Both the position numbers and the translations under genes were made by a program. From Amphiscolops sp. MND2022 (lineage: Eukaryota), in contig OZ076409.1 in NCBI GenBank assembly GCA_964187785.1, positions 55,120,001 through 55,184,000 of the forward strand: a DNA stretch of 64,000 nt, in the 5' to 3' direction. The notes beneath the pieces were generated by a model. That model was not told the DNA's origin, did not search any database, and saw only the letters and a program-made list of their open reading frames with translations. Below, piece by piece: positions 2,476 through 50,098 of the stretch (its first letter is position 1; each line of letters begins with the position of its first letter).

Positions 2476-3447
2476 GTCACGGTTGTGGATGCTCTTGCAC
2501 CCAGTCGCCTGAATCAAGGCTCTTTATGCAACCCGGGAACCACCGCCACCGAGGCTCAAAAATTGATAAGAATCGCGAATTAATAGACAATGGATACATT
2601 TTTCAGCCAGTGGCCTTGGAAGTACAGGGTTCTTTAGGCGAGAGCAGTGAAATTTTCATCACGCGTCTCTGTAAAATGCTCTGTCGTTCGCACGACGATC
2701 AACGATCCGGCAGCTTTTTGAAGCAACGGATTTCAATGGCTCTTCTGATCGGCAATGCGGCCTGTGTTCTAGGAACTGTGAGCAACAGAGATGCGTTCGA
2801 ATAATTTTATTACACATAGCCTAATTTTTTTGACATTTATATCAAAGCAGCTTTCAAAAAAATTCCACCGGTCGACTGAATAGTGGCTGGTTTGAGTAGT
2901 TTTTTGGTTGTTTTTTTTGTTAATGGTCTACTGGGATAGTGGCTGGTATGGGGTTCCCTTCTTTCGTTGCAGACGGGTGGCTGTAAATAGGTCGAATTTT
3001 TCTGGTCGAAAGGACAGAGGTCGAACCTTTTGATCGAATTGCAGGGATCGAATGAAATGCGGTCGAATATCATCGTATTTGTTGTATGGCTCATTCATCG
3101 CTTCGCTCCCTTCGCCAAGTAGCAACATTGAGGCATGGCCATATGGCACGTCGCTCCGCTTCGCTTCGCTCCTGTATTCAGGGCACTAGGGGTATGTGAA
3201 CATATCTGACTACGTTAAAAAAATTTCGATCCGAGTTGCTTCGATCCCATTCAAAAATTTGGTATGTCGACCTGAGGACTAACTTTGATTTTCGATTCCG
3301 TTCCTTCGACCTACGTCCGCCCACCCGTTGCAGACCACGGGTGTGTGTCTTCTGCCCCCAACATGATGATACACATGGCACTTAATTGATGACGAAGATC
3401 CATGATATCTGATAGAGAAAAAAAAACAAAAAAAGAAAAAAGAAAAC
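2476..3447 (+). mobile_element. 5'-truncated CRE-like (restriction-like endonuclease) non-LTR retrotransposon with 3' UTR and A-rich tail
   Basis: Translation across one frameshift reads VTVVDALAPSRLNQGSLCNPGTTATEA..IDKNRELIDNGYIFQPVALEVQGSLG...FLKQRISMALLIGNAACVLGTV, the C-terminal REL-endonuclease pattern of CRE-type elements. Stop at 2802-2804; A-rich tail at ~3418-3447. Confidence 0.75.
2975..3326. mobile_element. MITE (GGGTGG...CCACCC termini, 9-bp TSD; Mutator-like)
   Basis: TSD GTTGCAGAC at 2966-2974 and 3327-3335. A second copy lies at 17057-17971. Confidence 0.88.
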
Positions 3448-4048
3448 AATTTCTCAAAAACTGTTCATACGAATCGAACGAAATTTTTTACAGTCATTCA
3501 ACACCGTATTAGAGTCCTATATGTGCAGTGGCACCAAAATTGTACAGCTGGGATGTGAGAAACATTGCCTAAATTAGCCCAAAAATGGCCAAAAAACAGT
3601 CATTTTTCGATTCTCGCAAAAACTGTCCATACGATTCAAACGAAATTTTCTACAGACATTTTCTACACCGGAACATGGTCCTATATGTGCAATTTTAATA
3701 AATTCGTATGACTGGGGATGGAGCGAGTCAGAAGGAAAAAGACCTAAGCCGACTCCTTTACCGCATATGCGGCTCTGGTTTTTTACTTCAATTGACAATT
3801 CAGAAAAAGTGTTCCAAATGACTTCAAAGTTGTTTGTGGCCGTTTTTAGTCGGCGTTTTTCTTGTGAAAAAAGACCGACTATTACAGAGGCTAGTTTTTT
3901 TTCGTCAGCCTACAATCTCGCTCTGATTCGGCCACTTTTTTCACAATCGAAACTACTACCATAAGGCGAAGTCCGGTCAGCTGAAGTTAGTGCAAAAGGG
4001 TCCCCCCTTTCATTTTTTACTTTTTTTAACGTAACCTACAAAACCGGA

Positions 4049-4487
4049 TGTAAAATTCTTGGGGTTTTCCGGTTTTTAAATCTCTTTTGCTTTAGGTTTC
4101 TTCAGAGCGGGGCGTGAGGAAGGCTTTACAGAAAAGATTTTATTGTCGATGTTTTATAGTCAACTATTCAATAGAAGCCCAAAAATTCTTGTCCTCAAAT
4201 TTTTGTCATCAATGTTTTATTTTCTTCACTTTATTGTTTCCTGTCATGCGGAAATTAACCAAAATATTTTTTATCAAAAACTGCCCATGCGTGTATTTAG
4301 AGGGTGGGTCATAATATATTTTTATTGCTTTTTTTATTGTTCGTGAAATTACGATTTGCTCTCCGAGGGGTTGTTTTATTAAGATTAAATATTCATAGCT
4401 CCAATTGAGGGTCAAAATAATTAGTGAGGGTTTATATTGATTAGCTTCACAAAGTTTAATACCTTCTAATATTCAAAGAATATTACA
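4049..4487 (-). repeat. 3' LTR (439 bp)
   Basis: TGTAAAATTCTT...AAGAATATTACA imperfect terminal inverted repeat. Matches the interrupted LTR at 16273-18214 with about 19 substitutions by manual count. Confidence 0.95.
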
Positions 4488-4566: not shown

Positions 4567-6826
4567 TCAAATTTGACCTGTTCGTAGTTGTCTATTGAGT
4601 TGTGAGTAGATTGGGGCATCGGGCTCAGGGTTTCGTGTTTCTTTTAGTTGAGATTCCGGAATCAGCAAACTGTTGTTCCTCCACGGAAATTTTTCGTCGT
4701 TTTCCAATCCTTCCATCCTTCCAGATAATGATCTTCCACCATCATTATCGGTTTCAGTGACACCTTTTGGTTGTCCAGTTTATGGAAGAATGGTAGAAAT
4801 TTTGGTAGTCTCTTGTATCTGTGTAGTGCATACGTAACACCCAGGTGGAGTGCTGTACTAACAAAGAATACTACAAAGCCAATCGCAAGGTGACTTTTCC
4901 ATGACAGATAATTGTTGAACTGTTTCTCCAGGGACGGCTTTAGAGCTGTAAGTTTCTGAGCAATTGGCTGTGCAATATAATTCAAGTCTGAACGGTATGA
5001 ATTATCCGGTTGGGATTGTAGTTCCAATTTCATTGAGCTCAGGAGTTGAATATTCGCTTCCACTCGTGTGTTGTAATGGGGAAGCTGGTCCACTGTTGGA
5101 ATAAGGCTGAACAGTCTAGCCATTGGTTCCGGTAGTGTTACATTGAGTTTCAGTGGTGGAACTTTCATGCAAGTGCTAAGGTCAGATCTGATTCTAACGT
5201 TGGGGCCGATCAATTGTTTACCACAGCGTAGACTCACCAGGCATATCTGACAACCATCTATCGTTGTAGATCCTGCTGTGGTTGTTGCATTCATGTAGGA
5301 TTCACGAAACTTGAAGTTGGATGAGGTTGAGGTTATGAGCCATATTCCATAACCTAGGTTCGTTGCTTTCTCTTTTAGGGGGAGTGTCACAGCTTCGGTG
5401 TCGCAATCTTCAATTGCGTCCATAACATTTCCAAAATAGAGTACTGCCAAGCATGACGCATCTGATGTTTCAGCTGCCATGGTTTCGTGACAAATCTTGT
5501 TTTTGTTGGAGCCGATGCACTTTCCCAGTTGATCACGTGTTACCAATGCGGTTTCTCTTAGGTCTTCAGATATTGCAATATACTCCGTTTCCACAGTCCA
5601 CTGGATTGCATACGCTGTTTCCAGTTGTGGCATGGGGACCACTATTGCTTTGTAGACTGTGAAAACTGTTTGGCGGGATGCCAGTGATTAGACATTGTCA
5701 TCAGCAAGCCATCGTCTAATGTTAGGACGTCTAAGAGCAGTCGCGCTTCATAATACGCCAGAAGCTCGTCCAAGGGAATAGCCAAAGTTAGTCTGTCGCG
5801 GGATTGTAGTTGTTCTGTGGCCACCTGCTGTAGAATAATTTCCAGAGATTCTTTCGGTAACAAGGACATCGGAACATATTGCGTGAGTAAGGAAATTATT
5901 GCATTCATGATGTTCATTTGGAAGGCATACAGTGCTGCTCTGTAGGACTTTACATTACTGTAAATCAAAGATAAGAGTGATAAGATGGTGTCAAAGTTGA
6001 AGTTCACTTGCTGTCGTGTATAGAGCAGTTGATCACAATTTCTCATCTCGTGGATATTTTGCTGAAAGGTGTTGAACTGTTTCTCAATTGCTCTCCAGTT
6101 TTGGTTTTGGGTCCCAATGATTTGTCTTTGGATGCCATGTAACATCTCTAGTTCCTTTGATACTCGTAAAAATTTAGTATCCGTTGAGTTTGCCAGCTGT
6201 TGGATATTTTCGCCCGAAGATATCGCGTATTCTCCCAGTTTTTCAATATTCCTTGCGTTCTGTTTTGCTTTTTCCTGACATGAGCCGATAATACCCATAA
6301 TTCCACAATCTCCAGAGCCAAACATTATGCCACCTCCGAATAAACCGATTGCACCTACCGCTGCTGCTGTTAACGGGAGAGCTCGTTTTTTCCGTGTCCT
6401 TTTGTTTTCTTGTGTACCCTTTAGGAAAGATGCCACGTCACCCTTGATTTTAAGCAGGTCGTTTTGTGCACATGAAATTTCCTTTTGTGTTTCCTTGAGG
6501 AGCCAGTCCATTTTGAAATCTACTTCACTTGTATTTGTGAAGTTGAGATAGCAGAAGTAAGTTGGGGTTTGCCACATATTTTGGAGTGACTGTGCTATTT
6601 GGTCAACATTCGAAATAAGGGTCACTTCAAAGCGTGGGAAAGGGACCAAAAATTGGACATTGATAAATTTTTTTACCAGGAGGATTTTGGTTTCTTCATT
6701 AAAGAAAATGCCCTTGTCCAAGCTGCCTTGACGACTGATACCCTGCGCTATGTGAATGAACAGAATTAAGGAAAGCATTTTGGGCAGAGGTCTAGGCCTC
6801 TCAATCGTAGGGTGTTGTACTAACAT
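4567..6826 (-). pseudogene. env: env: class I viral fusion glycoprotein (F-type architecture), two frameshifts
   Basis: Signal peptide MLSLILFIHIAQG (ATG 6778); furin site RTRKKR followed by fusion peptide ALPLTAAAVGAIGLFGGGIMFG (~6400-6320); heptad region; Cys-rich ectodomain; TM segment LAIGFVVFFVSTALHLGVTYAL. One frameshift at ~5685. An 8-bp duplication (GGAAGGAT, ~4707-4722) shifts the tail, whose restored frame ends ...PIYSQLNRQLRTGQI* at 4567. Confidence 0.88.
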
Positions 6827-6828
6827 TA

Positions 6829-7164
6829 TTAGGGTAGCTCAATCGCCATGTAGTCCAAAAGGTCAAGGAGTTGGTCTTTCATCTGCTGTTGCCCTTTCAT
6901 AGTATTTCTTAGTGTCTGGAGTAGGTAGAAGAGATCCTCAAACTCTGGTGTTTCTTCGTCAATGTCCATGATACTGAAGGTGCTAGTGTTTTCTGTTGTC
7001 GCTTGAATAAAAAGGGGTGCACAACATCCACATTGTTGAGTTTGAATGGTATGGATTAGGATTGGATTTAGCTGTCGCGCCGGAGTCCATTTGAAAGGTG
7101 TCGGGAAAGTGATTTTCATGGGCACTAGTGTAACTCTCACTGTTAGGCCTGGTGATGTAGACAT
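6829..7164 (-). CDS. Orphan 111-aa accessory ORF of the LTR element, directly upstream of env
   Basis: ATG-initiated, uninterrupted and on the element strand. Its stop runs TAA-TAATG into the first env-frame ATG (6826). No recognisable domain. Confidence 0.5.
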   Translation of the reverse strand: MSTSPGLTVRVTLVPMKITFPTPFKWTPARQLNPILIHTIQTQQCGCCAPLFIQATTENTSTFSIMDIDEETPEFEDLFYLLQTLRNTMKGQQQMKDQLLDLLDYMAIELP

Positions 7165-8034
7165 TTTGGGTTATTTACTGTGAGTCAAAGTTGTCATTTC
7201 ATATATGTAGGTAAGGACTCTTTGGAATTTGTTGAGTGTTCAGAATGTTGAATGTTTTGGGTTGAATTTCAAGTAAATTTCAGATAGAATGGGGTTGTTG
7301 ATACCCAATAAAGAATCAATAAATTTTCAGCAGTCTTGTCGGCGTCTTGGTTATTAAATTCAAGCAAATAATTTCAGCAACCACGGAAAAATTTTATTAA
7401 ATAGACGTTATTTTATTATTTGTCACTGTTCGACCGGAATTTCAATAATCTGAACTCATTAGAATGTACTCGCCCGGAAATTTTCAATTTCCATTTTAAT
7501 TGAATTGTTTTGTTGGCCCAAGCTTGAATGGCGTCCCTTTGTTTACTGTTGTTTTATTACCAGACTATCTGCCAAAATGTTGAACTCTGCCAAAATCTGA
7601 ACTTTGCCAAAATGTTGTTCGAGTTCTTTCAGAGCATAAGCATTACCACATAACTTTGTCAAAGTTGCACCAGCTTTTGTGTTGTCCTGGTGGCACTACA
7701 GCTTTCGAAGGTGGGCGTCCAGTCAGTTTTGTACCCAACCGGGATCCGCGTTGTTCCTTAGACGGAAAGACTCCTCAGAAGGGCGGATCAGCCAGTCATT
7801 TTGATGATGACTCCCTCCAGTGTTTGTTTGTGCCCTGGTTGCTTGCCCTGATATTCATAGGGGTAACTTTTCTGTTTTGCCTCGAAAGACTCTGCAACCG
7901 AGATTAACTGGTTTACCTTACTAGATTGAACTTTTTGGATATAGTTAGTTTGCCTTAGTTTGGTTCAATTCTGGTCCCTAAAGCAAGAAACGTATGAAGT
8001 ATGGACTTGAAGGTTCCTTTTTTCCATATTTCTG

Positions 8035-8853
8035 ATGGAGAAATTTAATTTACTCTTGGAACTATGTCAGGGTCAATGCAAGGAAGTTCCACCTGTATCT
8101 GCTGCTGAGGCTGCAAAGTTCGAAAACATTAGTATTGTACGTGGTGTCACATGTTATTATAAAGTTCCGCTGTTACAGCAGTTGTCCGTTGAATGAACCG
8201 ATTTGGCAGTTCTTAAAGAGTCTTTCACCAATTGGGGTGAGGAGAAGCAAAATGTTGAGTTCTCTAGTACTAGTCTGTTAACAGCTTTAATGCCAACGAA
8301 GGATGTGAATGATATTAGCAAATGGTTTCACAGCGCCGTTGTACCCATTGAAAGAGTTTATGAGCCTGTTCTCCTGGTAGCGACTGGTAATTGCTTGACC
8401 GTCTTTCATGTCGATAATAGCCCGCCTACCGAAATTGTGGCTTCTTTATTACGCGGACGTAAATTATGGATATTCGCCAGTCATGGGTCAAAATCAGCAG
8501 CCCGGTTGGTCAAAAGAAAAGAAGAGACAGAATTTCAGCAATTTATTGAAGATCTTATGTTTCATCGTTTCCAAGATCTTTTATTTTGTGTGCAGGAACC
8601 TCGTGATACAGTGTGTTTTCCCGCCAGAACAGTGCATTTTGTTTTGAGTGTGACAGCAGGAAATGAATGGAATTGTTTATTAGGTCATAATATTAGTCAC
8701 AGAGAGGAGGTAGCTACCGCTATGGAAGTGAAAGCTTACAATCGTTGTAGTGGAATTGCTTCTCGTATAGTGCAAGGAAAAACGACAAAGCGGTCTGGTG
8801 TTACAAAGACGCGTTTTACCAATCGTCGAAGAACACAGAACTCTTCAAAATGA
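8035..8853 (+). pseudogene. JmjC-domain (Fe(II)/2-oxoglutarate cupin oxygenase, demethylase/hydroxylase-like) ORF, antisense within the LTR element
   Basis: Motifs LTVFHVD (His 8407-8409, Asp 8413-8415), LLRGRKLWIF (Lys 8461-8463) and CVQEPRDTVCFPARTVHFVLS (His 8635-8637) match the JmjC core T-x-F-H-x-D / G-x-K-x-W / C-x-Q-x-P-G-x-T...P-x-x-x-x-H-x-V. The frame is open from ATG 8035 apart from one TGA at 8194-8196. The C-terminus is basic. Confidence 0.8.
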
Positions 8854-8944
8854 TGGTTAGTCTATTTTAGGAACAAGTTTTTCGAAATCCTTTTATGCAT
8901 ATTTTTTTATGCTATCGCACAGACTGTTTTTTCAAAACCCAGTG

Positions 8945-9690
8945 TGTGTCAGTAGCTGCCGTAAGATGTTTAAGCACAGTTTTTTTAAACAGGTAAGGTC
9001 TTTTTAGAAGGCCTTTTTAGCGTTTTGGGCATTCTAGCCCTTCCGCTATCACCTTGTCGTGTAGTGCTCATGTAACGTGGTCCATTTGGGGGTATTTCGC
9101 GTGGCTGGCCAATTGCACTTAGCCAGTCGCAGTGACAAAATCGGAGTTGTCCGCTAATGTAGGGTAAGGTCGTTTTTGTTTAACATGTATTTTTTTTTGG
9201 TTTTTTGATGGATGAGCGCATCCGCTACCACCCTATGGTGTAGTTCTCATGGAGCACAATCCGGGGAAGGACAATATGCACTGATTTTTTCTTCCACTTA
9301 GCCAGTCGCAGTGGCAAAATTGTCGTTTTTGTGGAAACTTACTGAGGTCGAAAAAAATTGTAACTGGGAGGATGAAGTTTTTCTTATATAATTTTGCTTT
9401 TGCGCGCTTTTTCTATCACCCTATCGTGTAGTACACGTTTAGGGGTATCTGTTGAGGTATTTTCCGTGTCGGAATCTTGTCTCTTTTTCTCAGTCGCAGT
9501 CGCAAACTGTCAATTTTTATCATAAGGTCAGATAGGACTTTTTTTCTAATAGGGTATTTATGGATCAGCAATGCTTTTTGAAGGTACAATAGATACCCTA
9601 TCTTGTAGATGAAATTCTAAGGTGTCCATCAGTGTGTTTTTTGTATGGTTAACATGTCACTTTTTTATGTTCGCAGTGTCAAAATGTGGT
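8945..9690. repeat. Degenerate tandem array, period ~178-188 bp, four units plus a partial one
   Basis: Box A CTAYCACCYTRTSGTGTAG at 9046, 9225, 9413 and degenerate ~9592; box B CAGTCGCAGT..CAAA at 9124, 9303, 9491 and ~9668; T(A/G)AGGTC at 8995, 9165, 9343, 9523. Confidence 0.75.
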
Positions 9691-9917
9691 CAATGCCAAA
9701 TGTCGTATGTCAAGATAGTCGATTCTCTGCTCATTTTTCGAAAAGTGTCTTGTCTAAAGACATGTCCTTGAAGTTTTGCTGCAGAAATTTTTCAATCCAT
9801 GGGTTTTTTGCAGGTTGTGGAAGTGGAGGAACATAGAGTTTTCACGGTTTTCAAGGCTAAATTCAGTTGGTTGGTTAATGTTAACTTACGGGTGTCTGGT
9901 ATGGGAAGGTTGGTCCG

Positions 9918-10365
9918 TCATTGGGCGTAGGGTGCTCTGTGAGGAAATACACAAACGGTTATCGTCAAATTCGTGTGTTGGAAGACTTCTATCAAGAGGT
10001 TGCGTACTTGTTGCCATGGGAGTTTGTCTCTTCCACATCCAAGTTTGGGTAATCGGATTTTATCTACTCCATACCGTTGAGCATGGTCACGCATCAGTAG
10101 AAGGCTTTAACGCAGTGATGCAATTGAAGGCTTGTGGAAAAATTTTCGTTTCGTCACCAAGTTGTATATCCATTGTCGGGAATACTTGTCATAGAATGCA
10201 AAAACTGAACCAGGAGCAAGGTTCTTCGATGATTGTGTTTTTATTCGGGGTTATAGCCTGTCAAACCGGTCGGCTATACCTATACCCATTGCAAAGTCCG
10301 AAGACACGCAGTGTGCCATACTAGAGGACGAACAGAAGATGTTGTCATAGACTATGTTGACATTG
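9918..10365 (-). pseudogene. TARG1/OARD1 (Poa1p-like) macrodomain, ADP-ribose glycohydrolase-like, downstream of integrase
   Basis: Manual translation: VNIVYDNIFCSSSSMAHCVSSDFAMGIGIADRFDRL*PRIK...WIYNLVTKRKFFHKPSIASLR*SLLLMRDHAQRYGVDKIRLPKLGCGRDKLPWQQVRNLLIEVFQHTNLTITVCV. This carries the AHC-x-S-x-D-x-x-MG-x-GIA, L-(I/V)-TK and P-x-(I/L)-GCG-x-D-x-L-x-W motifs. Internal stops at 10251-10253 and 10107-10109. Confidence 0.88.
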
Positions 10366-11086
10366 TTTCTTGTCTGACATATTTCATTGATGCCTGGGCG
10401 TGATCTTTTTCCATTGGATCCTTCTTGTTGAGATCCAGGTCTTTGGACAAATTGCGTTTGCTGGCGTTCTAATCTGCGGTTTTGAGTAGGTCAATAAAGT
10501 TACGTGCTTCTTTGATTTCTCCTTGTGATGTCCGTTTCATGGGGTTTGAGGTTTTCAGTTGTCTTCCCACAGCTTCAATCAGTCTAAAGTTTGGTTGAGG
10601 TTGTGTGGCTATTCTTTCTGATCTGCGCAGGGGTTGTATTGTTTCAGGGTTTTCATCCGAACTGTCGGAAGTTTCTGGTATGTCTGCGGTCAGGTTGACT
10701 GGGGGTGCTAGTCGTATACTCGTATGGTCCGGTTCTACTATGGTGTGGTTTTCATTCGCGGTATTGGGGTTTCTCGCTGGTGGTATAGGTAGTGGTAGGT
10801 GTTGTTGGGCCTGATTGCTTTTTCCAAAGGAAATTGAAACTCTTACTGGGCTATCAAATGTTGTCGGTTGAACAGACTCAACAGGTGTGTCATCTTGTAG
10901 TAATGATGGGTAACCTCTGTCGAAGTAATCTGTGTCTCCTCTGTTATGTCCCAGTTCTAAAATTTGCAGGGCCTATTTCGGGAATGTCTTCAACTTGGTA
11001 TTGTGGTGTAATAGGTCTGATCCTGATTCTATGCACAATCTGTGTATAGTTTGTTCCAATTTTGCGAATAAGATAATTAGAGTCTG

Positions 11087-11833
11087 TCAATACTTTTCCC
11101 CTCCATAAAGTGCATGCCATTTTTGTATTAATTTGGAGCTGAAGGTAGATTGTTCTGTCAGTTTAGGGTTTAGTAGGAGGCAAAACTGGTGTTGTTGTAA
11201 TGGGTTTGCACGTGCTTTCTGATCATAATACCTGCGGTATCGTGCGAAAGACTTTACGAGACTCTCTTTTGTTTCGGAGAATTTCTTCAACATTTCATCT
11301 CGTAAAGATTCCACAAAGTCGTAATTGAAAGCTGCCTTTCGGATACATGTGCTGTAGAATCTGAGATCCAACGGTTTCATTGGTTCTCTGCCGTAGAAGA
11401 GTACTGTTGGTGCGCATCCAATAGAAGTATGGTATGATGTATTGTGGATGAAAGTCACCAAAGGTACGTACCGATGCCAGTTTGTTAACGTATCATTACT
11501 GTTTAGTTTGAGGATTCTTGTGAGTGCTGCGTGTGATCGTTCAAGTGCTCCAATTGTCTGTGGGTGCTTAAGAGAGGGATGTGTAATTTTGTTTTCCAAG
11601 AGCTTTGTAAGTTCACTAAAAAGTTCTGAGACAAATTGTGTTCCAAGGTCCGATATTATTTCTTTTGGTATATAGCTGTGATTGAACATAATTGAGGCCA
11701 ATGCTGCAGCTACTGATGGCGCACTTATTGTGGTCAAGGGCACAGCAAAAAGGTATTTGGAAAAGACAACAATTGCTGTGAGCACATATTTATACGGAGA
11801 TGAGGGAAATGCTCCTTGAATATCGATCTGCAT
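11087..11833 (-). pseudogene. pol: pol: integrase catalytic core
   Basis: MQIDIQG...IISDLGTQF...HPQTIGALERSH (D,D35E pattern). A frameshifted C-terminal extension continues below 11087. Confidence 0.92.
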
Positions 11834-11887
11834 TATGTCTCCGGGGAAGGATGTTTTTGAAGATAGTTCGCTTAGCGGAGGTTTGAG

Positions 11888-13255
11888 TCAAGTTGGTTGG
11901 ACAAGTTTGAGTTGTAAACAGGTTGAGCAGTTTCTGATGTGGCTTGCAATTTGTTCTATGTCATTCGGGCAGTAAAAGCGCCTACGAAACTCGGCGATTG
12001 TTCTTGTTATTCCCAAATGTCCTCCTGTGGGTGAATTATGTATTCTATAGAGGATTTCTTTTAGCATGTGTTTGGGTACACATACTTGTTTATGAAGGAT
12101 AGTACCATCATGGTCGTAATAGTTCCGTTTAAGGATTCCATTGTCTATGATTAATCGCGGGAGTTGTTTCCGATATTTCTGTTCTTCTCCTGATGAATAA
12201 ATATTATGTGGTGGTTCTGTACCTTCTGTAAGCCAGGTTGTCACTTTCGAGAGTAGGGCGTCATTTTGTTGTTCCCTTTCTAGAGTTGCCACCGATGTCT
12301 CAAGTTCTGGATAATTGTCCATCGGGTTTTGTAATTGTAGTGCGTTGATCGGGACTGCTTGTTTGTATCTGGTCAATTGGATTTCTTCATTTTGGGTTGC
12401 CAGGGCTTTTTGGTGTTGTGAGGCATTCTCAAAGTTTCCAGATTGTTTCAATGTTATTAATGTGTTCATATCAACCACTTGAAGTAAGTCATCGGGGAAT
12501 TCACCAGAGAAAAGTTCATTAATTGTATTGTCTGGTAATTTAGCTCGAATATCAATCTCTACTTCGCGTACCGGAATACGGTCTGTAAGTTTGAATTCTA
12601 CTGTTTCGTTCGAATTTGGTTGCAGGCGAGATAAAAAATCCGCTGCTGCGTTTGCTTTCCCGGGAATATGAGCGACTACTATGTTGAATGTGGTTACTCT
12701 GTCGACATAGCTCCAAAGGGATGGAGGAATTGTCTTTGCTTGACAGAAGCGTGTGAGGCTTTTGTTATCTGTCAGTATCAGTACAGGTTTTTCGCTACCC
12801 CATATGAAGTGTGAGAAGGTTTCTAGAGCAAAACAAAATGACAGGAATTCTTTGCAGTAGATTGGCATTTTCAACTGAGCTGTCTTGAAGACTTTCGATC
12901 CAAATGAGACTGGTGCGTATGACTTTACATCTTCACCTTTCTCATTTTTGACATAGTCTTCAATCATGAGTACGAATCCACTCGAATGGTAACTTGCGTC
13001 ACAAAAAATTACATAATGTAGTCCTGGTTTTGCCAATCGTAGTGTTTGCGTTGCAGTTGTTTTGAGTTTCTCCTTCAAGGTTTCAAACGAATCCAGTATT
13101 TCTTCTGTCACTTTGAATACCACATTTTTCCGCAGCAGTTTATAGAATGGTAAGATATGCTCATTCAAATTGGGGTTGAAGTTTCTGAAAAACTGAAGGA
13201 AACCTATCAGTCTTTTTACTTGTTTAACAGATTTTGGTATATCCAGTGTTTTCAA
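11888..13255 (-). pseudogene. pol: pol: RT connection, RNase H and integrase HHCC zinc-binding domain
   Basis: VIFCDAS, ILTDNKSL, HIPGKANAAADFLSR; HNSPTGGHLG...CSTC. Confidence 0.92.
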
Positions 13256-13263
13256 GATATTCT

Positions 13264-15060
13264 CTATTTTGTTTCTGGTTTTAGGCCTTCTTTGGTAATC
13301 ACATTTCCAAGAAAACTAACTTGTTCAGAACCAAATACACACTTTTTTGGAGATAATTTGAGTCCTGAGCGTCTGAGGCCTTGAAATATTTGTCTGAGGT
13401 ATGGTTCCAAATAGTTTCTCACAAAAGCACTGAATCCGGTTACAGATCGGTTCAATCCTCTCGCTAATCGCTGATAGGCTAGGGTTCGTGAAGCAAAGTT
13501 GAATGCCAGTAGTTGTACCGAGAGTGGGTCTGCCATTTGTACACAATGGTAGGCCTGAGAGCAATCAAATTTGCAAAACAGTTTCTTTCCGGCAAAATGA
13601 GCAGTTGTGTCTGCCCTTGTTGAGAATGGAAAGTTATTGTTGTGATAATCATGAAGGAGTAAATGGTTGATACGGCGTAGGTCTACTAGGATTCGAAGTT
13701 CTCCATTAGTTTTACGGTGTGCGAAAATTGGACTGCTATATTTTGAATGGTTGAGGCTGGTGATAATTCCAAAATATTGTAAGAGTGCAAGTTCAACCTG
13801 TAGTTCCTCTCGTAAGTGTATTGGTGTCGGTGGGCTTTGCGTGTAGACAGGTTTATCATGTTCAGGAGTCAATTTCATTGTTATTTCCGAATTATAACTG
13901 ACGTCAAATCTATGTTTGGCAAATATATCCGAGAATTCAATCAGTAGCTCTTCTAGTTTTTGTTTTTGATGTGGATTCAGTACTGAGTCTTTCCATTGGA
14001 ATCTTTGGAGGAATATTTCACGGTAGTTAGCGTCCATTTGTGGGTCTATATTTTCTAACTCTTGGAGCTTCAATAGTTCCTCATAAATCCTTTTTTCCAC
14101 TCCTTGAAGATTTTCCGTATTTCGACAAGTTTCTGGGGTCTGGAACCAAAAACTTTTGTAGTCTGGTTGAGGTCTAGGAGGTTGCGATTCTGAGTTAAAA
14201 GTTTGATCTATTACCAATTGGTTTATTCCAGTGACTAAATCATCTGGGTTTTTGAATTTTGCTAAAGTCAGTAGTTGAGGGTCAATTGGTGTTAAGGTTT
14301 CAGCTTGTTGGGGTGAGAGAAATTTAAAGAGAGCAATGTCTGAATTTCGAGGTATCGTGACTTCATTTTCTTGAAGGTTCAATGCAGAAATGAATAGGTG
14401 ACCTGAAGAGTCAACTTTCGAAAGGGATGAGATTATGCACAAACCCGTTTTTTCCTCGAAACTAGTTTTCGGTTCGACTATCCCGCAAAGCTCCGATACT
14501 TTATTCTTGGAGAGTAACACGCATTTTAAAATTGTTTGTTGGTTCGGGGCAATCGTTGTTTTCTCGACCGTTCTAATTGAGTACTGGGGTTTTGTAGTTT
14601 TCTCAAGTTTGTCCATTTCATTCAATTGTAGTGTCAGGTCTGGAAGTTTCATCAAGTTTTCTTTTGGGTATAGTTCTACGGAGTTATTTTTGAAGAAAGG
14701 GTTTCCCAAAATAATACTACTTGTATTGGGCAGAACAAGGAATGTTTCCTTAAAGGAATGATTGGCAATGGAAAATTGGAGTTCTATTTGGCCACGCACA
14801 GGTATAAGTTGTCCGGAAGCTAATTTCACTTTACTGACCTGTTTTGGTGTAGTGAGTTGCGAGATGTTTCCACCCACAAGAAGATTTCAAGTCTTCATAG
14901 TCATGTTCATTGATGGCATTTGCACAGGCTCCAGTGTCAATTAGAGCTTTTCTCGTTTCTTTAGAGAAAAATTTTAGTGGTACATAGGATAGAATATCAC
15001 CCTGAAGGGATATGCATGCAGTAATTTGGTGGTCCTCTCTTTGTGTCGTTTCTTCCGTTT
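13264..15060 (-). pseudogene. pol: pol: aspartic protease and reverse transcriptase (frameshifted; catalytic DD block deleted)
   Basis: ALIDTGACANAI protease motif (~14930). RT motifs YSSPIF, LRILVDLRRIN, KFDCSQAYHC, RLARGL and GLKLSPKKC. No (Y/F)xDD between YLEP and YLRQIF. Confidence 0.92.
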
Positions 15061-15081
15061 TGTCTTCATACTGGCGTGGCT

Positions 15082-16242
15082 CTACTCGTTTTTTGGTGCT
15101 GTTCGATATGGAATTTGCTGGTTTCTCTGTGCTGGTTGACGTTGAATACAATCCTTGGCGTAGTGGTTTGGGTATCCACAGTTGTAACATACATTTTTCG
15201 AGTAACTGGTCTCTTCAATATGTCCATCATCAGATGACTGTTGTAGCTGTGGGTTGTTGTTACCATAGTTGTTTTGGTTACCTCTGTTATTGTTGTATTT
15301 GCCATAGCACCCTCTGTTGTTGTTATATCTACCTTTTCCTCTGTTGTTTCCTCGATTGAAGTTTCCTCTTCCTCTGTATCCTCTCGAGTTATTATATCTG
15401 TTGTTACCTCTGTAGTTAGAGTTTCTGTTCTGATTATTGTCGTTGTTGTAATTCTGGTTACCCATGTTTTGACAGCTGAATGTGTTGATTCTGTTCGACA
15501 TTTCAGTTTGGTGTTGTTTGATTTCATCTTGTTGTTGAGTTAATTTAGTTAATGCACTAACCAAGTTTTCTGAGAGCGTTGTACTCACTTCGTTGAATGC
15601 GTCTCTGGACCAATCGTCACTCGGGCACAGCTCAAAGAACACCATTTGCCTTCGAGCCACAGTGCACAAGTCTTGAACTGTTGCTGCTTCATTTTGATCC
15701 AAAAGTTTTCTTTTAATGAAGTTTGGCATTGAGTTTGTGAAGATTTCTTTTATCCTTCTGTTTCTTTCATTTGTCGCATTGTCCAAAACAGTCTGATTCG
15801 CTGCTTCTGTTGCCGCAACTCTGGCAATTCCAGCTTGGTCATTTGGTGGATTAGCTGGTGGAATAGGTGCAAACACTGGGTCAGGATAGGCTTGTGTTGC
15901 TTTGATTTGCACTTGTACGAGGAAGTCTTCTGGGCTACCAGTTTTGTGATCAAATTTCAAGTTATGTAGTTGTAATTCTCGAAGATTTGGGTTACAGTAG
16001 TGGTTGCGCAGAGCTGTAATGGCTGCATCGAAGTTATCTCTTGTAGCTTGTGGTAATGTTCTAAAGAATTGTAGGGCTTGGTCTAGTAGATGTAGTTGCA
16101 GGAATTGTGGTCGGTTTGCCGCTGGGATGTTCCCCACATTGATCAAGCTTCTGAGTAGACTCTCAAAATCTGGCCAATTTTCATCTGGTTTTCCGCGGAA
16201 TGGGTTGAGTAAGATGTGTGGTTGAGGGTTTGCAGCTGCCCT
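15082..16242 (-). pseudogene. gag: gag with CCHC zinc knuckle and an Asn/Arg/Gly-rich region
   Basis: The frame is open from 16242 (AGG GCA GCT GCA..., probably a mutated ATG) through PFRGKPDENWPDFE. It contains CYNCGYPNHYAKDC and overlaps the start of pol. Confidence 0.88.
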
Positions 16243-16254
16243 TGTCTTTTCCTC

Positions 16255-16272
16255 ACTTCCTCCTTGTCACCA
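16255..16272 (-). promoter_or_regulatory. Primer-binding site
   Basis: Minus strand TGGTGACAAGGAGG... starts immediately after the CA end of the 5' LTR; TGG is complementary to the tRNA CCA end. The priming tRNA was not identified. Confidence 0.7.
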
Positions 16273-16398
16273 TGTAAAATTCTTGGGGTTTTCCAGTTTT
16301 TAAATCTCTTTTGCTTTAGGTTTCTTCAGAGCGGGGCGTGAGGAAGGCTTTACAGAAAAGATTTTAGTGTCGATGTTTTACAATCAATTATTCAATAG

Positions 16399-16968
16399 GG
16401 GAACAAGACGTTTCGGCACAAGACGTTTCGGCAACAAAATGGCGGAAGACGTTTCGGCAACAAAATGTTGCCGAAACGTCTTTCACCTGCTGTGAAGACG
16501 TTTCGGCACCAAAGACGTTTCGGCAACAAGAAGAATAATCTGTAGTTTTCTTTAGTATGAAACGTGCCCCATATATGTCCCCATTTCCTCTAGTGCCCCG
16601 CGGCCCCTTGGGGCCGCTTATATTCCCATCTTGCTAAGCGAGGTCGAACAGGAGCAAAGACCTAGCGGAAACGGAGATCGCGAAGCGATCGTAGTGGGAG
16701 CTGGTCTTTGCGACGGTGAGGGCGAGCGTGCATACACCGAATATGCCCCCACATTAGAAGGGGAAAGTCCTGAAAATTTTGCAAGACATTCACGAAAAGT
16801 AAAAATTTATTCTTAAGAAGTCAAAAAAAGTCACAAAATGTTGCCGAAACGTCTTTCACCTGCTGTGAAGACGTTTCGGCACCAAAGACGTTTCGGCAAC
16901 AAAAAGTTGCCGAAACGTCTTCCGCCATCTTGTTGCCGAAACGTCTTGTGCCGAAACGTCCGGAACCC
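16399..16968. mobile_element. Foldback-type MITE with arms of AAGACGTTTCGGCA(A)C repeats, 8-bp TSD
   Basis: TSD TTCAATAG (16391-16398, 16969-16976); GGG...CCC termini; long modular inverted arms. Confidence 0.88.
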
Positions 16969-17056
16969 TTCAATAGAAGCCCAAAATTTCTTGTCCTCAA
17001 ATTATTGTCATCAATGTTTTATTTTCTTCACTTTATTGTTTCCTGTCATGCGGGAA

Positions 17057-17971
17057 GGGTGGCTGTAAATAGGTCGAATTTTTGGTAAATGGTCACTTGG
17101 CTTAATGCCATTTGGCTTAAAGTCATTTGGCTTAATACAATTGGTCACTTGGCTTAATTTTTTTAAGCTAAGTGTCTCGGGAATTGGTCACTTGGCTTAA
17201 AGTCATTTGACTTAAAACCACTTAGTTGAAAACACGTGACAGATTTTGTCGAATTTATCTTTATAACGGAATCAGCGTATCAATATAACATGTCATATCA
17301 AGTACCCCTCGTATATGTCCCCATTTCCTCTAGTGCCCTGCGGCCCCTTGGGGCCGCTTGTATTCCCATCTTGCTAAGCGAGGTCGAACAGGAGCAAAGA
17401 CCTAGCGGGAACGAAGATCGCGAAGCGATCGTAGTGTGAGCTGGTCTTTGCGACGGTGAGGGCGAGCGTGCATACACCGCATATGCCGCGCATTATGATA
17501 TTTCCGGGAGTTGACATATTTTTTCCTTGAGTTAGAACGGAGTTGGCTTAATTTTGTGGTCACTTGGCTTAAAATTTTTAAGCCAAATGACTCGACGAAA
17601 AAATTAAGCCAAATGGTATTAAGCCAAGTGACTGGTAACCGAATTTTTCTGGTCGAAAGGACAGAGGTCGAACCTTTTGATCGAATTGCAGAGATCGAAT
17701 GGAATGCGGTCGAATTTTATCGTATTTGTTGCATGGCTCGGTCGCTTCGCTCCCTTCGCCAAGTAGCAACATTGAGGCATGGCCATATGGCACGTCGCTC
17801 CGCTTCGCTTCGCTCCTGCATTCAGGGCACTAGGGGTATGTGAACATATCTGACTACGTTATAAAAATTTCGATCCGAGTTGTTTCGATCCCATTCAAAA
17901 ACTTTGGTATGTCGACCTGAGGACTAACTCTGATTTTCGATCCCGTTCCTTCGTTCTACTTCCGCCCACCC
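17057..17971. mobile_element. MITE, second copy of 2975-3326, containing a nested MITE
   Basis: 9-bp TSD ATGCGG(G/A)AA (17048-17056, 17972-17980). The body matches 2975-3326. Confidence 0.88.
17084..17640. mobile_element. Foldback-type MITE with arms of GTCA(C/T)TTGGCTTAA repeats, 8-bp TSD
   Basis: TSD GAATTTTT (17076-17083, 17641-17648). Termini GGTAAATGGTCACTTGGCTTAA and TTAAGCCAAGTGACTGGTAACC. Confidence 0.88.
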
Positions 17972-19131
17972 ATGCGGAAATTGACCAATATATTTTTTAT
18001 TAAAAACTGCCCATGCGTGTATTTAGCGTGTGGGTCATAATATATTTTTTATTGCTTTTTTTATTGTTCGTGAAATTACGATTTGCATTCCGGGGGGTTG
18101 TTTTATTAGGATTAAATATTCATAGCTCCAATTGGGGGTCAAATTAATTAGTGAGGGTATATATTGATTAGCTTCACAAAGTTTAATACCTTCTAATATT
18201 CAAAGAATATTACACCGGACGAGACTAAAAGGTCCCCCTTTTGATTTTTTTCAGCACTATGCGACTTTTTTTCCGAAATTTCTTCAATGTCTCAAAAGAG
18301 TCCCCTTTCCAGTTTTGTGATATTTTGCAACAGAATATATGTCAATAAATCCCAAAGGGTCCCTCTTTTCTACATTTTTCGGCACTATGCGGCATTTTCT
18401 CTAAGGAAAAAAATCAAAAATTTCAAGTTTTCTTTCAAACAAAAGTCTTGCGCTTTTTGAGCCTTAGATATAGCTCCGACTTTAGACGTTCATGTCTTGT
18501 TTGTGATTCGACAAGATTGAAAAAACTTGCGTGAAGCCATTATATTAGTGTCGTTTTTATATAAATTGCCTAGTTTTTGTTTACTGTTTTTTTTCGTTTT
18601 TCACACGAAGTCCAACGAAATGATGGAGATTATGAGCTGATGTGTTTCTAAACTTTTGCATGTGACCTATGTTCATCGTTGTCACGGCTGCCGAGTTCCT
18701 AATAATAATGATTATATAAGTTGTTCCTTATCGGGTGCCTTACGTGGTTTTATGTTACCAAGTGGTTGGCACACACCCGTGGGCTCCAAATGAGGGGAAA
18801 CAATGAGCGAGAATGCTTATCAGAAGACTTATTACCCATGCGGGCCCTTATTTCAGTAAACCGGCAGAAATGAACGAAATTTTTAAATTAGCAACCCATC
18901 ATTGTCCAAAAGAGCAACCGCCTGAAAACTGAAAAGTTTACATCCTCGTTTCTGTGAAAATCACTTCTTGCAGCTCCGACCCGCGATGTCAGTAATTTTT
19001 TGTCAGTGTTGCATGTATGTGTAGCAGGCAACTACCTGATTAGTCGTGGTTTTTGTCTCACTCAGTTAATCCCATGCTTTTGATTTATACTTCGAAGAGA
19101 TTAGAAATGAGTTCCATAGCAGGAATATGAC

Positions 19132-30717: not shown

Positions 30718-31278
<561 letters not shown>

Positions 31279-31345
31279 TGAAACAGTTAATAAAGCGCTC
31301 AAAATAACTAAAATGAAACAGGATATGGAATTCTCTTTAACATGA

Positions 31346-31840
<495 letters not shown>

Positions 31841-32112
31841 TAGTTAGAAAATTATATGTTGAAACTTTTCGTGAATTTTCCTAGAATGGGCTTAAATGTC
31901 GTTTTCGTTCACCGTGGAGCTATATCAGTTGGTTCAAGCGTCGCGTACCGCTGAAGTTTTGTTACCTTCAAAAACAACCATACAGTTTTGAGCTTTCAGG
32001 TTGAAAATTTTCGAATTTTTTTCGCAAAGGATGACAAATAGAAATTCACACACGTGTCGCCTGATCAGTTTGCAAATATCTCTTTTAGATTCATTGTCAA
32101 AAACTGTCATAG

Positions 32113-32577
<465 letters not shown>

Positions 32578-33129
32578 TAACCCCTGAAATAATAAAAAAT
32601 ATTAAAATCCTGTTTTTTGAAGTGTTTAAACAATTTAGCTACAATTTTGGGCCGTTTGTTATTTACTCATCTAACTTAGCTACCAAGTTGATTTAATGTT
32701 TTCATCGTTTTCTTTTTAAGGCGTGAATGCAAAACTTCATTAAACATCACTTGGAATATCGTTTCTTGGTAAAGTGTCAAAAAATTGTTGTCCTTCATTC
32801 AAGTAACAAAGCTTATGGTCCAACATAGCTTATTTGAATGTTTTATATATTTTATTCGAGAATCAGCTTGTAATTGCAGCAAAGAATCGCATGTAAAGCT
32901 TTGCTGTTGCAAATTTTGTCAAATTTTTATTCCCTTTGAGCTGAAATGTATACTTGATGCATTTTTTTGGAAATTTGTTTGCAGTCGCAGTCTTGATACT
33001 GGGTCGCTTTTTCGTTGAAATCTGACTTTTTGAATCCTTGTGCGGTCTCTAATAAACTTTCCAAATTTTTCGAATCTTTGTTGGCTTCCCATCTAGCTCA
33101 CATTTGCTAGTTGTCCTATCTGATATTAA

Positions 33130-48509: not shown

Positions 48510-49282
48510 TAAAGAAGTGAAATTTTCGCCGCAGAAATTTTGTTGCGAGACATTTCGCCGTAATAGCCAATCGAGAATGTCCGTCGTCAGAAGTCTCCGA
48601 AGTTTTGTTGTTTAATATTCTAAATTATCAGTTCATTGAGTTGGGGTCTCAAAAACACGATTCAACTTGACTCCTCCATAAACACCAACATTGAGGGCCC
48701 CGAGTTAATTGCGTCCAATCAGCTCAATCAAGACGCTCACATAGCAACGGTATAATATTGTCATGAACTATTTCAGCAACAAACATTCAAAATTTTTTTA
48801 AAATGGAGAAACGTGTAGAAGTAAGGTGTAAAAATCTATGATAATGGTTGATATACTATGAACAGTCCCTGACTGACTTCCTGTGTATCCTCGTACTTGT
48901 TTTCTCAAAATTATTACTCCTAATGATCAATGATACTATGCCTTTCAGTTAACGGCATTCGCTCATAAGCGGAATTAATATGAAATGATTCACTCACGGT
49001 TCTTGAAAAGCAAGCTAAATTTCGACAAAATTTTGAAGAAAGTAAGTCTCGACGAGGAAATTTTAGGTGACATTTTTTACAAAATTTCCTACAACAAAAT
49101 TCCTGGGAATCCCGCTATGGTCTCCGAATATTTTGAATTTCGGTACCACGTTGACATAGAACTTGTTGAATGACTTAGAGAAAGTGGCAATTGACTCAAA
49201 GCTGATTCGTTGAACGCCACTTTTTTCACATAGAAACCCAACATCTGTTTAATCGTAGGAATTTTCACGAATGAAACCTTAC

Positions 49283-49579
49283 CCGAGGATTTGATAGTAG
49301 TTGTAGACCCATGAGCTACATTTGCAGTCGGGGTGGATGTTATCTCTTCATTCTCAACGGGTCCAGCGTCGCATGAGTAAGAGCCTTGGGTGTTTCTACA
49401 CTCTTTTGATTCTTTGCAAAGTCCATCTTCGTCCTCACACTCGTCTACGTCATCACAAGAATCTGTGACGTTGTTGTAGAAGAACCCGGAGTTACACTCA
49501 CAGTATGAGATGCCGTGATAACTGAGACATCGCTCGTTAGGAAAGTTACAGTCTGTGTCTGTCCCACACTGTGTTTTCT
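49283..49579 (-). CDS. Exon: EGF + calcium-binding EGF + Ser/Thr linker
   Basis: CGTDTDC...CECNSGF...CDDVDECEDEDGLC...CRNTQGSYSC; GACAG acceptor, GTAAG donor, phase 1-1. Confidence 0.88.
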
Positions 49580-50098
49580 CTGTCAATGGGGATTGATGAA
49601 TGAAGGTTTCTTGAACGCTACACTATTTTTCAAATTTGTCATAACGTTACAAATCAAACTTCTATGCATGCAGTGATATTTCAACGGAAAATTAGGAAGT
49701 TACACTAAAAAAGGTGGCATGCCCCCTGATTTTGCTTGTAGAGAACATATAAAGCTTTAGAACTTGAAATACCCCGTGTTTTTTCTTCTTGACAATACCC
49801 CGTGTTCGACGACATGAAACGCTGGCCAAGATCATAATAAACTTAAACTAATGTAAAACATACGCTTACCAAAATCATCTTGTAACACGGAACGCTTGGC
49901 ACATTCATGCATGATCATGATACCCTAGATAAAATCATTATAAAAATTTACCAACGGTAGGTAGTACTTTACGGTGGGCCTTGGAAAACGTTTCGTATCT
50001 TCGGGCACTGATTTTAGAAAGGATACAAAAATGAGCTGATCCAATCTTTATTGGCTTCACCTTTCAAATATGTCCCTAAAATAGGCAATCATTCTAAC

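Follow-up and report, generated by a model that had tools for sequence, protein, structure and literature searches.

The window, the whole 64,000-nucleotide stretch of Amphiscolops sp. DNA that was analysed, contains a Ty3/gypsy LTR element that lies on the minus strand from 18214 to 4049 and carries a macrodomain. Its 5' LTR (16273..18214, minus strand, TG...CA) is split by two younger insertions, at about 16399-16968 and about 17057-17970, and a primer-binding-site-like TGG stretch begins beside it at 16272. The 3' LTR (4049..4487, minus strand, 439 bp, TG...CA) has a purine-rich tract directly upstream and aligns to the three 5' LTR pieces with 439 identities, 20 mismatches and one gap (20 of 459 aligned bases differ). 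A 5-bp target-site duplication (4044..4048, partner 18215-18219) flanks the element, which has inserted into another repeat with an uninterrupted paralogue near 540; no special target is evident at this one site. Specifically, the traits of Ty3/gypsy elements that are present are the TG...CA LTRs, the short duplication, the primer-binding site and the order protease, reverse transcriptase (RT), RNase H and integrase.

Both insertions in the 5' LTR resemble non-autonomous DNA transposons, with duplications of 8 bp and about 9 bp. The one at 16399-16968 has terminal inverted repeat arms of 77 nt (16407-16483/16884-16960), and the one at 17057-17970 has arms of 40 nt (17081-17120/17604-17643) and a paralogue at 2993-3326. 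Elsewhere in the window, host exons of AHCYL type (adenosylhomocysteinase-like) lie at 30718-32580 on the plus strand (human AHCY-like proteins 217 bits, the rest at most 161), and an EGF_CA exon lies at 49089-49622 on the minus strand; both point to an animal host.

On the minus strand, a gag ORF of 394 amino acids with a CCHC zinc knuckle (15082..16266, Pfam) is followed by the 5' part of pol (12081..15082), which encodes protease, a dUTPase-like segment, RT and RNase H, and by the integrase (10953..12080), whose H2C2 zinc domain, rve core and C-terminal domain were identified by Pfam, tblastn and translation. The dUTPase-like segment, located between protease and RT at about 14580-14330 (minus strand), matches with an E of 0.042 in the window and of 0.00023 in the relative P0244 (21.4 bits against a cut-off of 22). 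The window copy is dead: frameshifts near 14870 and 13275 interrupt the 5' part of pol, the integrase is broken by a stop (11890-11888) and by frameshifts near 11100 and 10955, and the RT has no [YF]xDD motif left, while the relatives P0241, P0243 and P0244 retain the RT active-site motif.

Downstream of pol, about 1 kb between the macrodomain stop and a JmjC-domain gene contains no recognisable gene, with 0 Pfam families in the three minus frames of 8900-9917. In the non-coding stretch 9100-9500 (minus strand), which lies between the stops of macrodomain and JmjC gene, a short motif occurs three times and is possibly regulatory. The JmjC gene itself (8035..8853) lies on the plus strand, antisense to pol; it retains HxD...H and has one in-frame stop (8194-8196). 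Ahead of env, an ORF of 113 amino acids without a convincing family (6829..7170, minus strand) ends a stop-ridden, protein-like frame at 7902-6829 (minus strand), and a read-through of 6832-7902 gave 0 Pfam families. The env-like gene (4662..6802, minus strand, one frameshift near 5650-5690) was recognised by eye from a signal-peptide-like start, a cleavage-like basic site with a hydrophobic Gly/Ala stretch after it, heptad helices and a C-terminal hydrophobic segment, motifs that we take to be those of class I fusion proteins. Nothing in Pfam, NCBIfam, PHROGs or the PDB sequences matches it, and its single-sequence model (pLDDT 38.5) is too low in confidence for use.

A macrodomain of the TARG1 class ends Pol

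The last domain of Pol is a macrodomain of the TARG1/OARD1 type (9918..10364, minus strand), identified by sequence matches and predicted fold. Six-frame reading places its frame at minus 10364-9921, with a natural stop at 9920-9918, so that the range of 9918-10365 in an earlier note on this DNA was one base off. The two internal stops that the note had described are in-frame TAA codons at 10253-10251 and 10109-10107. An ORF on the plus strand (9758-10324) matches 0 Pfam families; it was rejected as a gene and is, as had been supposed, an antisense shadow of the macrodomain.

The translation of the window macrodomain with X at both stops (P0001) was used as the query. In the PDB sequence search, human OARD1/TARG1 matches residues 11-138 with an E of 2.7e-23, and among the eight matches listed five are TARG1, the other three, of which two are DarG, being macrodomains with much weaker matches. 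PHROG 335 matches with an E of 1.3e-16 and NCBIfam DarG with an E of 2.6e-12, at 46.7 bits far below its cut-off of 250. Searched against the whole 64-kb window, a natural OARD1-like protein scores 92 bits at the macrodomain and 18.9 bits at the next-best place. Pfam Macro (PF01661) matches at 19.2 bits (E 0.0012), below its curated cut-off of 22; the relatives P0016 (24.4 bits), P0005 (25.9) and P0242 (24.7) pass it. In the full-length Pols P0241, P0244 and P0029, Pfam Macro has no listed match, and the macrodomain is easily missed because full-length Pols often score below this cut-off.

A model of the macrodomain predicted from a 24-row alignment has a pLDDT of 91.4, and in the fold search TARG1 chains occupy ranks 1-8 (TM 0.80-0.86, 33-34% identity). 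The TARG1 catalytic dyad is Lys84/Asp125 (PMC9411070, available part), and the window residues Lys72 in LVTK (10151-10149) and Asp113 in GCGRD (10028-10026) align with these two, a single numbering offset satisfying both alignments; the earlier note was therefore right both about the kind of domain that lies next to the integrase and about its retained Lys and Asp. The basic positions K50/R86/R126, described as the RNA-docking surface of TARG1 (preprint 10.64898/2026.03.31.715305, available part), read R/K/K in the window copy and are basic at all three. Judged by its predicted fold and aligned dyad, the window domain belongs to the TARG1 class and is a predicted hydrolase. The second-best structural class is the antitoxin DarG (ranks 9-12, TM 0.82-0.85, 20-23% identity), which shares the catalytic Lys. 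However, DarG lacks the dyad Asp (PMC9411070, available part), which the window domain has, whereas the window domain lacks a DarT partner and the DarG C-terminal domain. Membership in DarG was rejected on the score of 46.7 of 250 bits and on the neighbours, which are pol and JmjC, with no DarT partner.

Between the integrase C-terminal domain and the macrodomain lies a Pro/Ser/Thr-rich linker (10365..10972, minus strand), delimited by tblastn of P0003, P0004, P0016 and P0240. In the window it is spread over two frames, with a switch near 10481-10484: upstream, a TGA at 10493-10491 closes the macrodomain frame after just 42 codons, and a different frame holds the remaining linker (10972-10472). 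The claim that the macrodomain frame continues upstream through the linker holds for the last 42 residues but not beyond, where a frameshift cuts it off, and because only these 42 residues share the macrodomain frame, the window copy's own frame makes a weak argument for a fusion.

The proposed C-terminal fusion to Pol is instead established by natural relatives that hold both domains in one ORF. In P0003, whose macrodomain part is 92% identical to the window, integrase C-terminal domain, linker and macrodomain form one ORF, and the same holds for integrase, linker and macrodomain in P0004 and P0016 (60-64% identical in the macrodomain part). The complete Pols P0241, P0243 and P0244 comprise 1778, 1817 and 1818 amino acids, represent clusters of 121, 61 and 47 members, and have the macrodomain as their final domain. 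The single protein P0241 matches Ty3 Gag-Pol (E 6.9e-46, with Ty3 the closest RT among solved structures), foamy-virus integrase and, at residues 1643-1777, TARG1. Among 104 proteins, 71 match a macrodomain, 54 match an integrase and 35 hold the two in one ORF, in a sample of hits and cluster members found with macrodomain-containing queries that would miss macrodomain-less sister families. In all one-ORF cases the macrodomain directly follows the integrase C-terminal domain, across a linker of variable length (about 170-325 amino acids among relatives) whose 23-44% identities, obtained by global alignment of low-complexity sequence, were not counted as homology. From each of the three large clusters 14 further members were examined; the macrodomain-less ones that align to the representative are 88-99.7% identical, early-ending fragments, and five members of 431 amino acids failed to align. 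No relative was found in the viral and metagenome contigs searched. The Pol of this gypsy clade thus consists of protease, dUTPase-like segment, RT, RNase H, integrase, a long flexible linker and a TARG1-type macrodomain.

Descent of the macrodomain and its JmjC neighbour

Within the clade, of the relatives that span the respective column, many of them near-copies, 67 of 69 retain the catalytic Lys and 64 of 65 the catalytic Asp. Among six subfamily representatives, identity is 33-52% in the macrodomain, 72-85% in the integrase core and 77-91% in the RT. Small integrase and macrodomain trees, of 11 rows, agree in grouping the window with P0016, P0244 with P0036, P0010 with P0029, and these last four proteins with one another, and the branches of the macrodomain tree are much longer. 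As read from these trees, there was one old capture of the macrodomain, followed by vertical descent with the integrase through at least six subfamilies. The fast divergence of the macrodomain can also reflect relaxed constraint. Residues at the positions of K50, R86 and R126 are basic in 24 of 70, 42 of 69 and 28 of 65 relatives, respectively. In P0244, P0036, P0012 and their kin the His-Cys and Gly-Cys-Gly motifs are altered and Lys and Asp are kept, and this subfamily may have a functionally shifted macrodomain; because of these altered motifs, function may differ within the clade.

The JmjC gene follows a different distribution. The window copy is 94-95% identical to open-frame relatives of 286 amino acids, and the relatives as a whole form 17 clusters at 51-95% identity, a multi-copy family. 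An open-frame relative, P0190, scores 25.4 bits, above the Pfam cut-off of 24, which together with the HxD...H iron motif fits a JmjC hydroxylase/demethylase; a search of the Atlas returned JmjC/cupin clusters at 0.91-0.93, none with a named subfamily, and a comparison with PDB sequences gave 0 matches. The family also has a basic C-terminal tail. For co-occurrence, contigs were paired by exact size with 45 JmjC contigs, with 9 of the 17 clusters expanded, and a shared contig is not the same as a shared element. On this measure, JmjC shares a contig with five of the six members of the P0004 family (one contig being just 32.8 kb) and with one of five other proteins of the window branch (P0050, 93% identical, together with P0213, 95% identical); among the contigs of more distant macrodomain families the counts are 1 of 30 and 0 of 46. 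The co-occurrence of macrodomain and JmjC that had been put forward as a novelty is therefore upheld in the window's sub-branch (5/6) but not beyond it (1/30, 0/46). An obligate macrodomain-JmjC pair was rejected since JmjC is limited to one sub-branch; from the same counts it follows that JmjC is a later cargo of that sub-branch, whereas the macrodomain is the older, clade-wide feature.

TARG1-class domains also occur in other LTR proteins. A search of 1.84 billion representatives gave 2872 matches, of which the best 150 were taken and the 72 longer ones scanned; seven of these 72, all outside the clade (P0094, P0098, P0101, P0131, P0161, P0174 and P0184), combine a macrodomain with gag, protease, RNase H or integrase domains, in differing positions. 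Specifically, the TARG1-type domain of P0161, P0098, P0101 and P0094 adjoins gag, protease or RNase H and not integrase; in P0174 it also follows an integrase, whose identity to the P0241 integrase is about 24%. In a quick macrodomain tree of 157 rows and 147 columns (4 short rows dropped), 23 labelled family rows plus 7 unlabelled rows form one branch with an SH-aLRT of 94, and the seven outside-clade LTR proteins fall outside it in five places. This is suggestive of repeated macrodomain capture by LTR lineages, in a poorly resolved tree with 76 of 154 inner branches open.

The same scan contained TARG1-like domains in other fusions: with a DNA ligase III-type BRCT domain (P0118, P0075, P0079, P0099, P0125 and P0159, in P0118 within a DNA ligase), with PNKP (P0148), with NADAR and a helicase-like domain (P0120) and with a SLOG (YAcAr) domain (P0069 and P0153).

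Discussion

The closest known counterpart of the window domain is human TARG1/OARD1/C6orf130, an ALC1-like protein with which it shares the minimal macrodomain fold, Lys84/Asp125, the Gly-Cys-Gly loop and, in the window copy, basic residues at K50/R86/R126. TARG1/OARD1 is a free cellular protein, whereas here the domain is the tail of a retroelement Pol and, in the quick tree, forms its own fast-evolving branch apart from OARD1-like cellular sequences. Macrodomain capture by LTR retroelements is already known: fish epsilon-like endogenous retroviruses carry macrodomain ORFs (Basta et al. 2009, as cited in the available part of PMC4977317), and extra enzymatic ORFs and dUTPase are likewise known (PMC5408684, available part). 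Compared by description only, however, the fish elements are vertebrate retroviruses with the macrodomain as an additional ORF, whereas the window element is Ty3/gypsy and its Pol type ends in an in-frame TARG1-class domain.

The add-on domains known after gypsy integrases are chiefly chromodomains (PMC13524379 and 10.1101/2021.11.30.470311, available parts), and chromoviruses and chromodomain-bearing errantiviruses likewise have a host-derived domain fused C-terminally to the integrase of a Ty3/gypsy Pol. The chromodomain, however, is a reader of methylated histone and the tail of the window clade a predicted enzyme; no chromodomain was found in the 8 and 10 proteins scanned. The F-type 'ancient errantiviruses' (PMC13524379) resemble the window element in their gag-pol-env order, LTRs and multi-copy families in an animal, but their third ORF is homologous to paramyxovirus/baculovirus F, whereas the env likeness here was judged by eye only.

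The terms 'macro' and 'JmjC' are absent from the main text of PMC13524379 and from PMC6431247, and neither 'retrovir' nor 'retrotranspos' appears in PMC8120803. In the supplements of PMC13524379, four of ten 'macro' places were examined and are species names, and the available parts of PMC11696869, PMC7217437 and 10.1101/451740 contain nothing relevant. In the literature covered, largely at the level of titles and abstracts, no report was found of a gypsy Pol that ends in a TARG1-class domain, nor of an LTR element that carries a JmjC gene; Repbase reports, subscription papers and preprint supplements may contain either.

The available data are compatible with a model in which the macrodomain serves the element's counter-defence. 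Among positive-strand RNA viruses, macrodomains serve as ADP-ribose erasers against host defence. By analogy with these, the domain most likely works like a viral counter-ADP-ribosylation enzyme. The alpha-, corona- and hepevirus domains, which are likewise ADP-ribose erasers within a replication polyprotein, offer a functional model, but they belong to the MacroD class with a different catalytic chemistry and are only 12-14% identical in the fold search. In TARG1, the Lys attacks C1'' of ADP-ribose and the Asp resolves the adduct. By the same steps, the macrodomain, presumably packaged as part of Pol into the particle with RNA and enzymes, would strip ADP-ribose off proteins at Asp/Glu, off the end phosphates of nucleic acids or off bases. 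TARG1 itself frees Asp/Glu, nucleic-acid end phosphates and O-acyl esters of ADP-ribose (PMC7050489, available part) and is also reported to reverse ADP-ribose on uracil-N3 and guanine-N1 (preprint 10.64898/2026.03.31.715305, available part). Erasing the marks of host PARPs from the element's RNA, cDNA or proteins would then allow translation, reverse transcription and end processing to proceed. In its specific form, that the domain erases host-PARP ADP-ribose from the element's own RNA, cDNA or proteins as a counter-defence, we put this proposal at slightly short of an even chance; the inconstant basic nucleic-acid surface and the one subfamily with altered motifs may argue against a uniform counter-defence.

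The element's protease might cut the linker and release the macrodomain, or the macrodomain might stay joined to the integrase. Were it to stay on the mature integrase, which would deliver it to the integration site as the earlier note supposed, it could erase ADP-ribose at gap ends, PARP1/2 and chromatin and thus damp the damage alarm during joint repair, an unlikely but serious reading that would fit the place of the macrodomain directly after the integrase C-terminal domain, the movement of TARG1 to damage and its reversal of end-phosphate ADP-ribose (PMC7050489, available part), and the action of other add-on domains, such as the chromodomain, from the same position (PMC13524379, available part). 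Against it, the two domains are separated by a variable and possibly cleaved linker, and other LTR polyproteins place the TARG1-type domain by gag, protease or RNase H, which points to packaging and not to integrase tethering; the linker and these varied positions therefore favour a packaging role. Tethering is also central to the decidedly improbable reading of the tail as an ADP-ribose reader, a functional analogue of the chromovirus chromodomain that would recruit the integration complex to chromatin or breaks marked with ADP-ribose: the position is the chromodomain's (PMC13524379 and 10.1101/2021.11.30.470311, available parts), the ALC1-like class contains readers (PMC7050489, available part) and one subfamily has altered motifs, but a pure reader would have no need of the near-invariant hydrolytic dyad, and the window insertion, in another repeat, gives no sign of a special target at its one site.

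The enzyme might also serve housekeeping in the particle by removing small molecules such as O-acetyl-ADP-ribose, and would then sanitise in the manner of retroelement dUTPases, in keeping with the O-acyl-ADP-ribose hydrolysis by TARG1 (PMC7050489, available part) and with the dUTPase-like segment in the same Pol. This is very unlikely, as it leaves the rapid surface divergence and the basic surface in several subfamilies unexplained. We know, moreover, of no need for O-acyl-ADP-ribose clearance in reverse transcription. That a fragment of host OARD1 simply landed beside pol as a neutral passenger is scarcely credible: the window copy is broken and its macrodomain frame discontinuous with the integrase, but many subfamilies carry the fusion in frame, full-length ORFs exist in multiple copies, the trees match and the dyad has been kept, which largely refutes a chance neighbour.

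As judged from sequence comparison, a Pol-terminal TARG1-type macrodomain is a clade-wide feature of this env-bearing gypsy element, of which the window holds a dead copy. In a broader and doubtful extension of the counter-defence model, animals would restrict LTR retrotransposons by ADP-ribosylating the bases or ends of their RNA and cDNA, gypsy lineages would repeatedly have captured TARG1, as the sole eraser class that reverses base-linked ADP-ribose, on their integrase, and a JmjC demethylase in the window's sub-branch would be a second eraser, directed against methyl-based silencing. Reversal of base-linked ADP-ribose on RNA, as well as of end- and Asp/Glu-linked ADP-ribose, is reported for the hydrolase TARG1. 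The dyad kept at the Pol tail by a whole gypsy clade, together with the same class elsewhere in the Gag-Pol of other LTR lineages, would mean that ADP-ribosylation is a standing pressure on retrotransposons. The gypsy Pol tails, in turn, are small natural domains with which this idea of an ADP-ribosylation pressure can be assayed.
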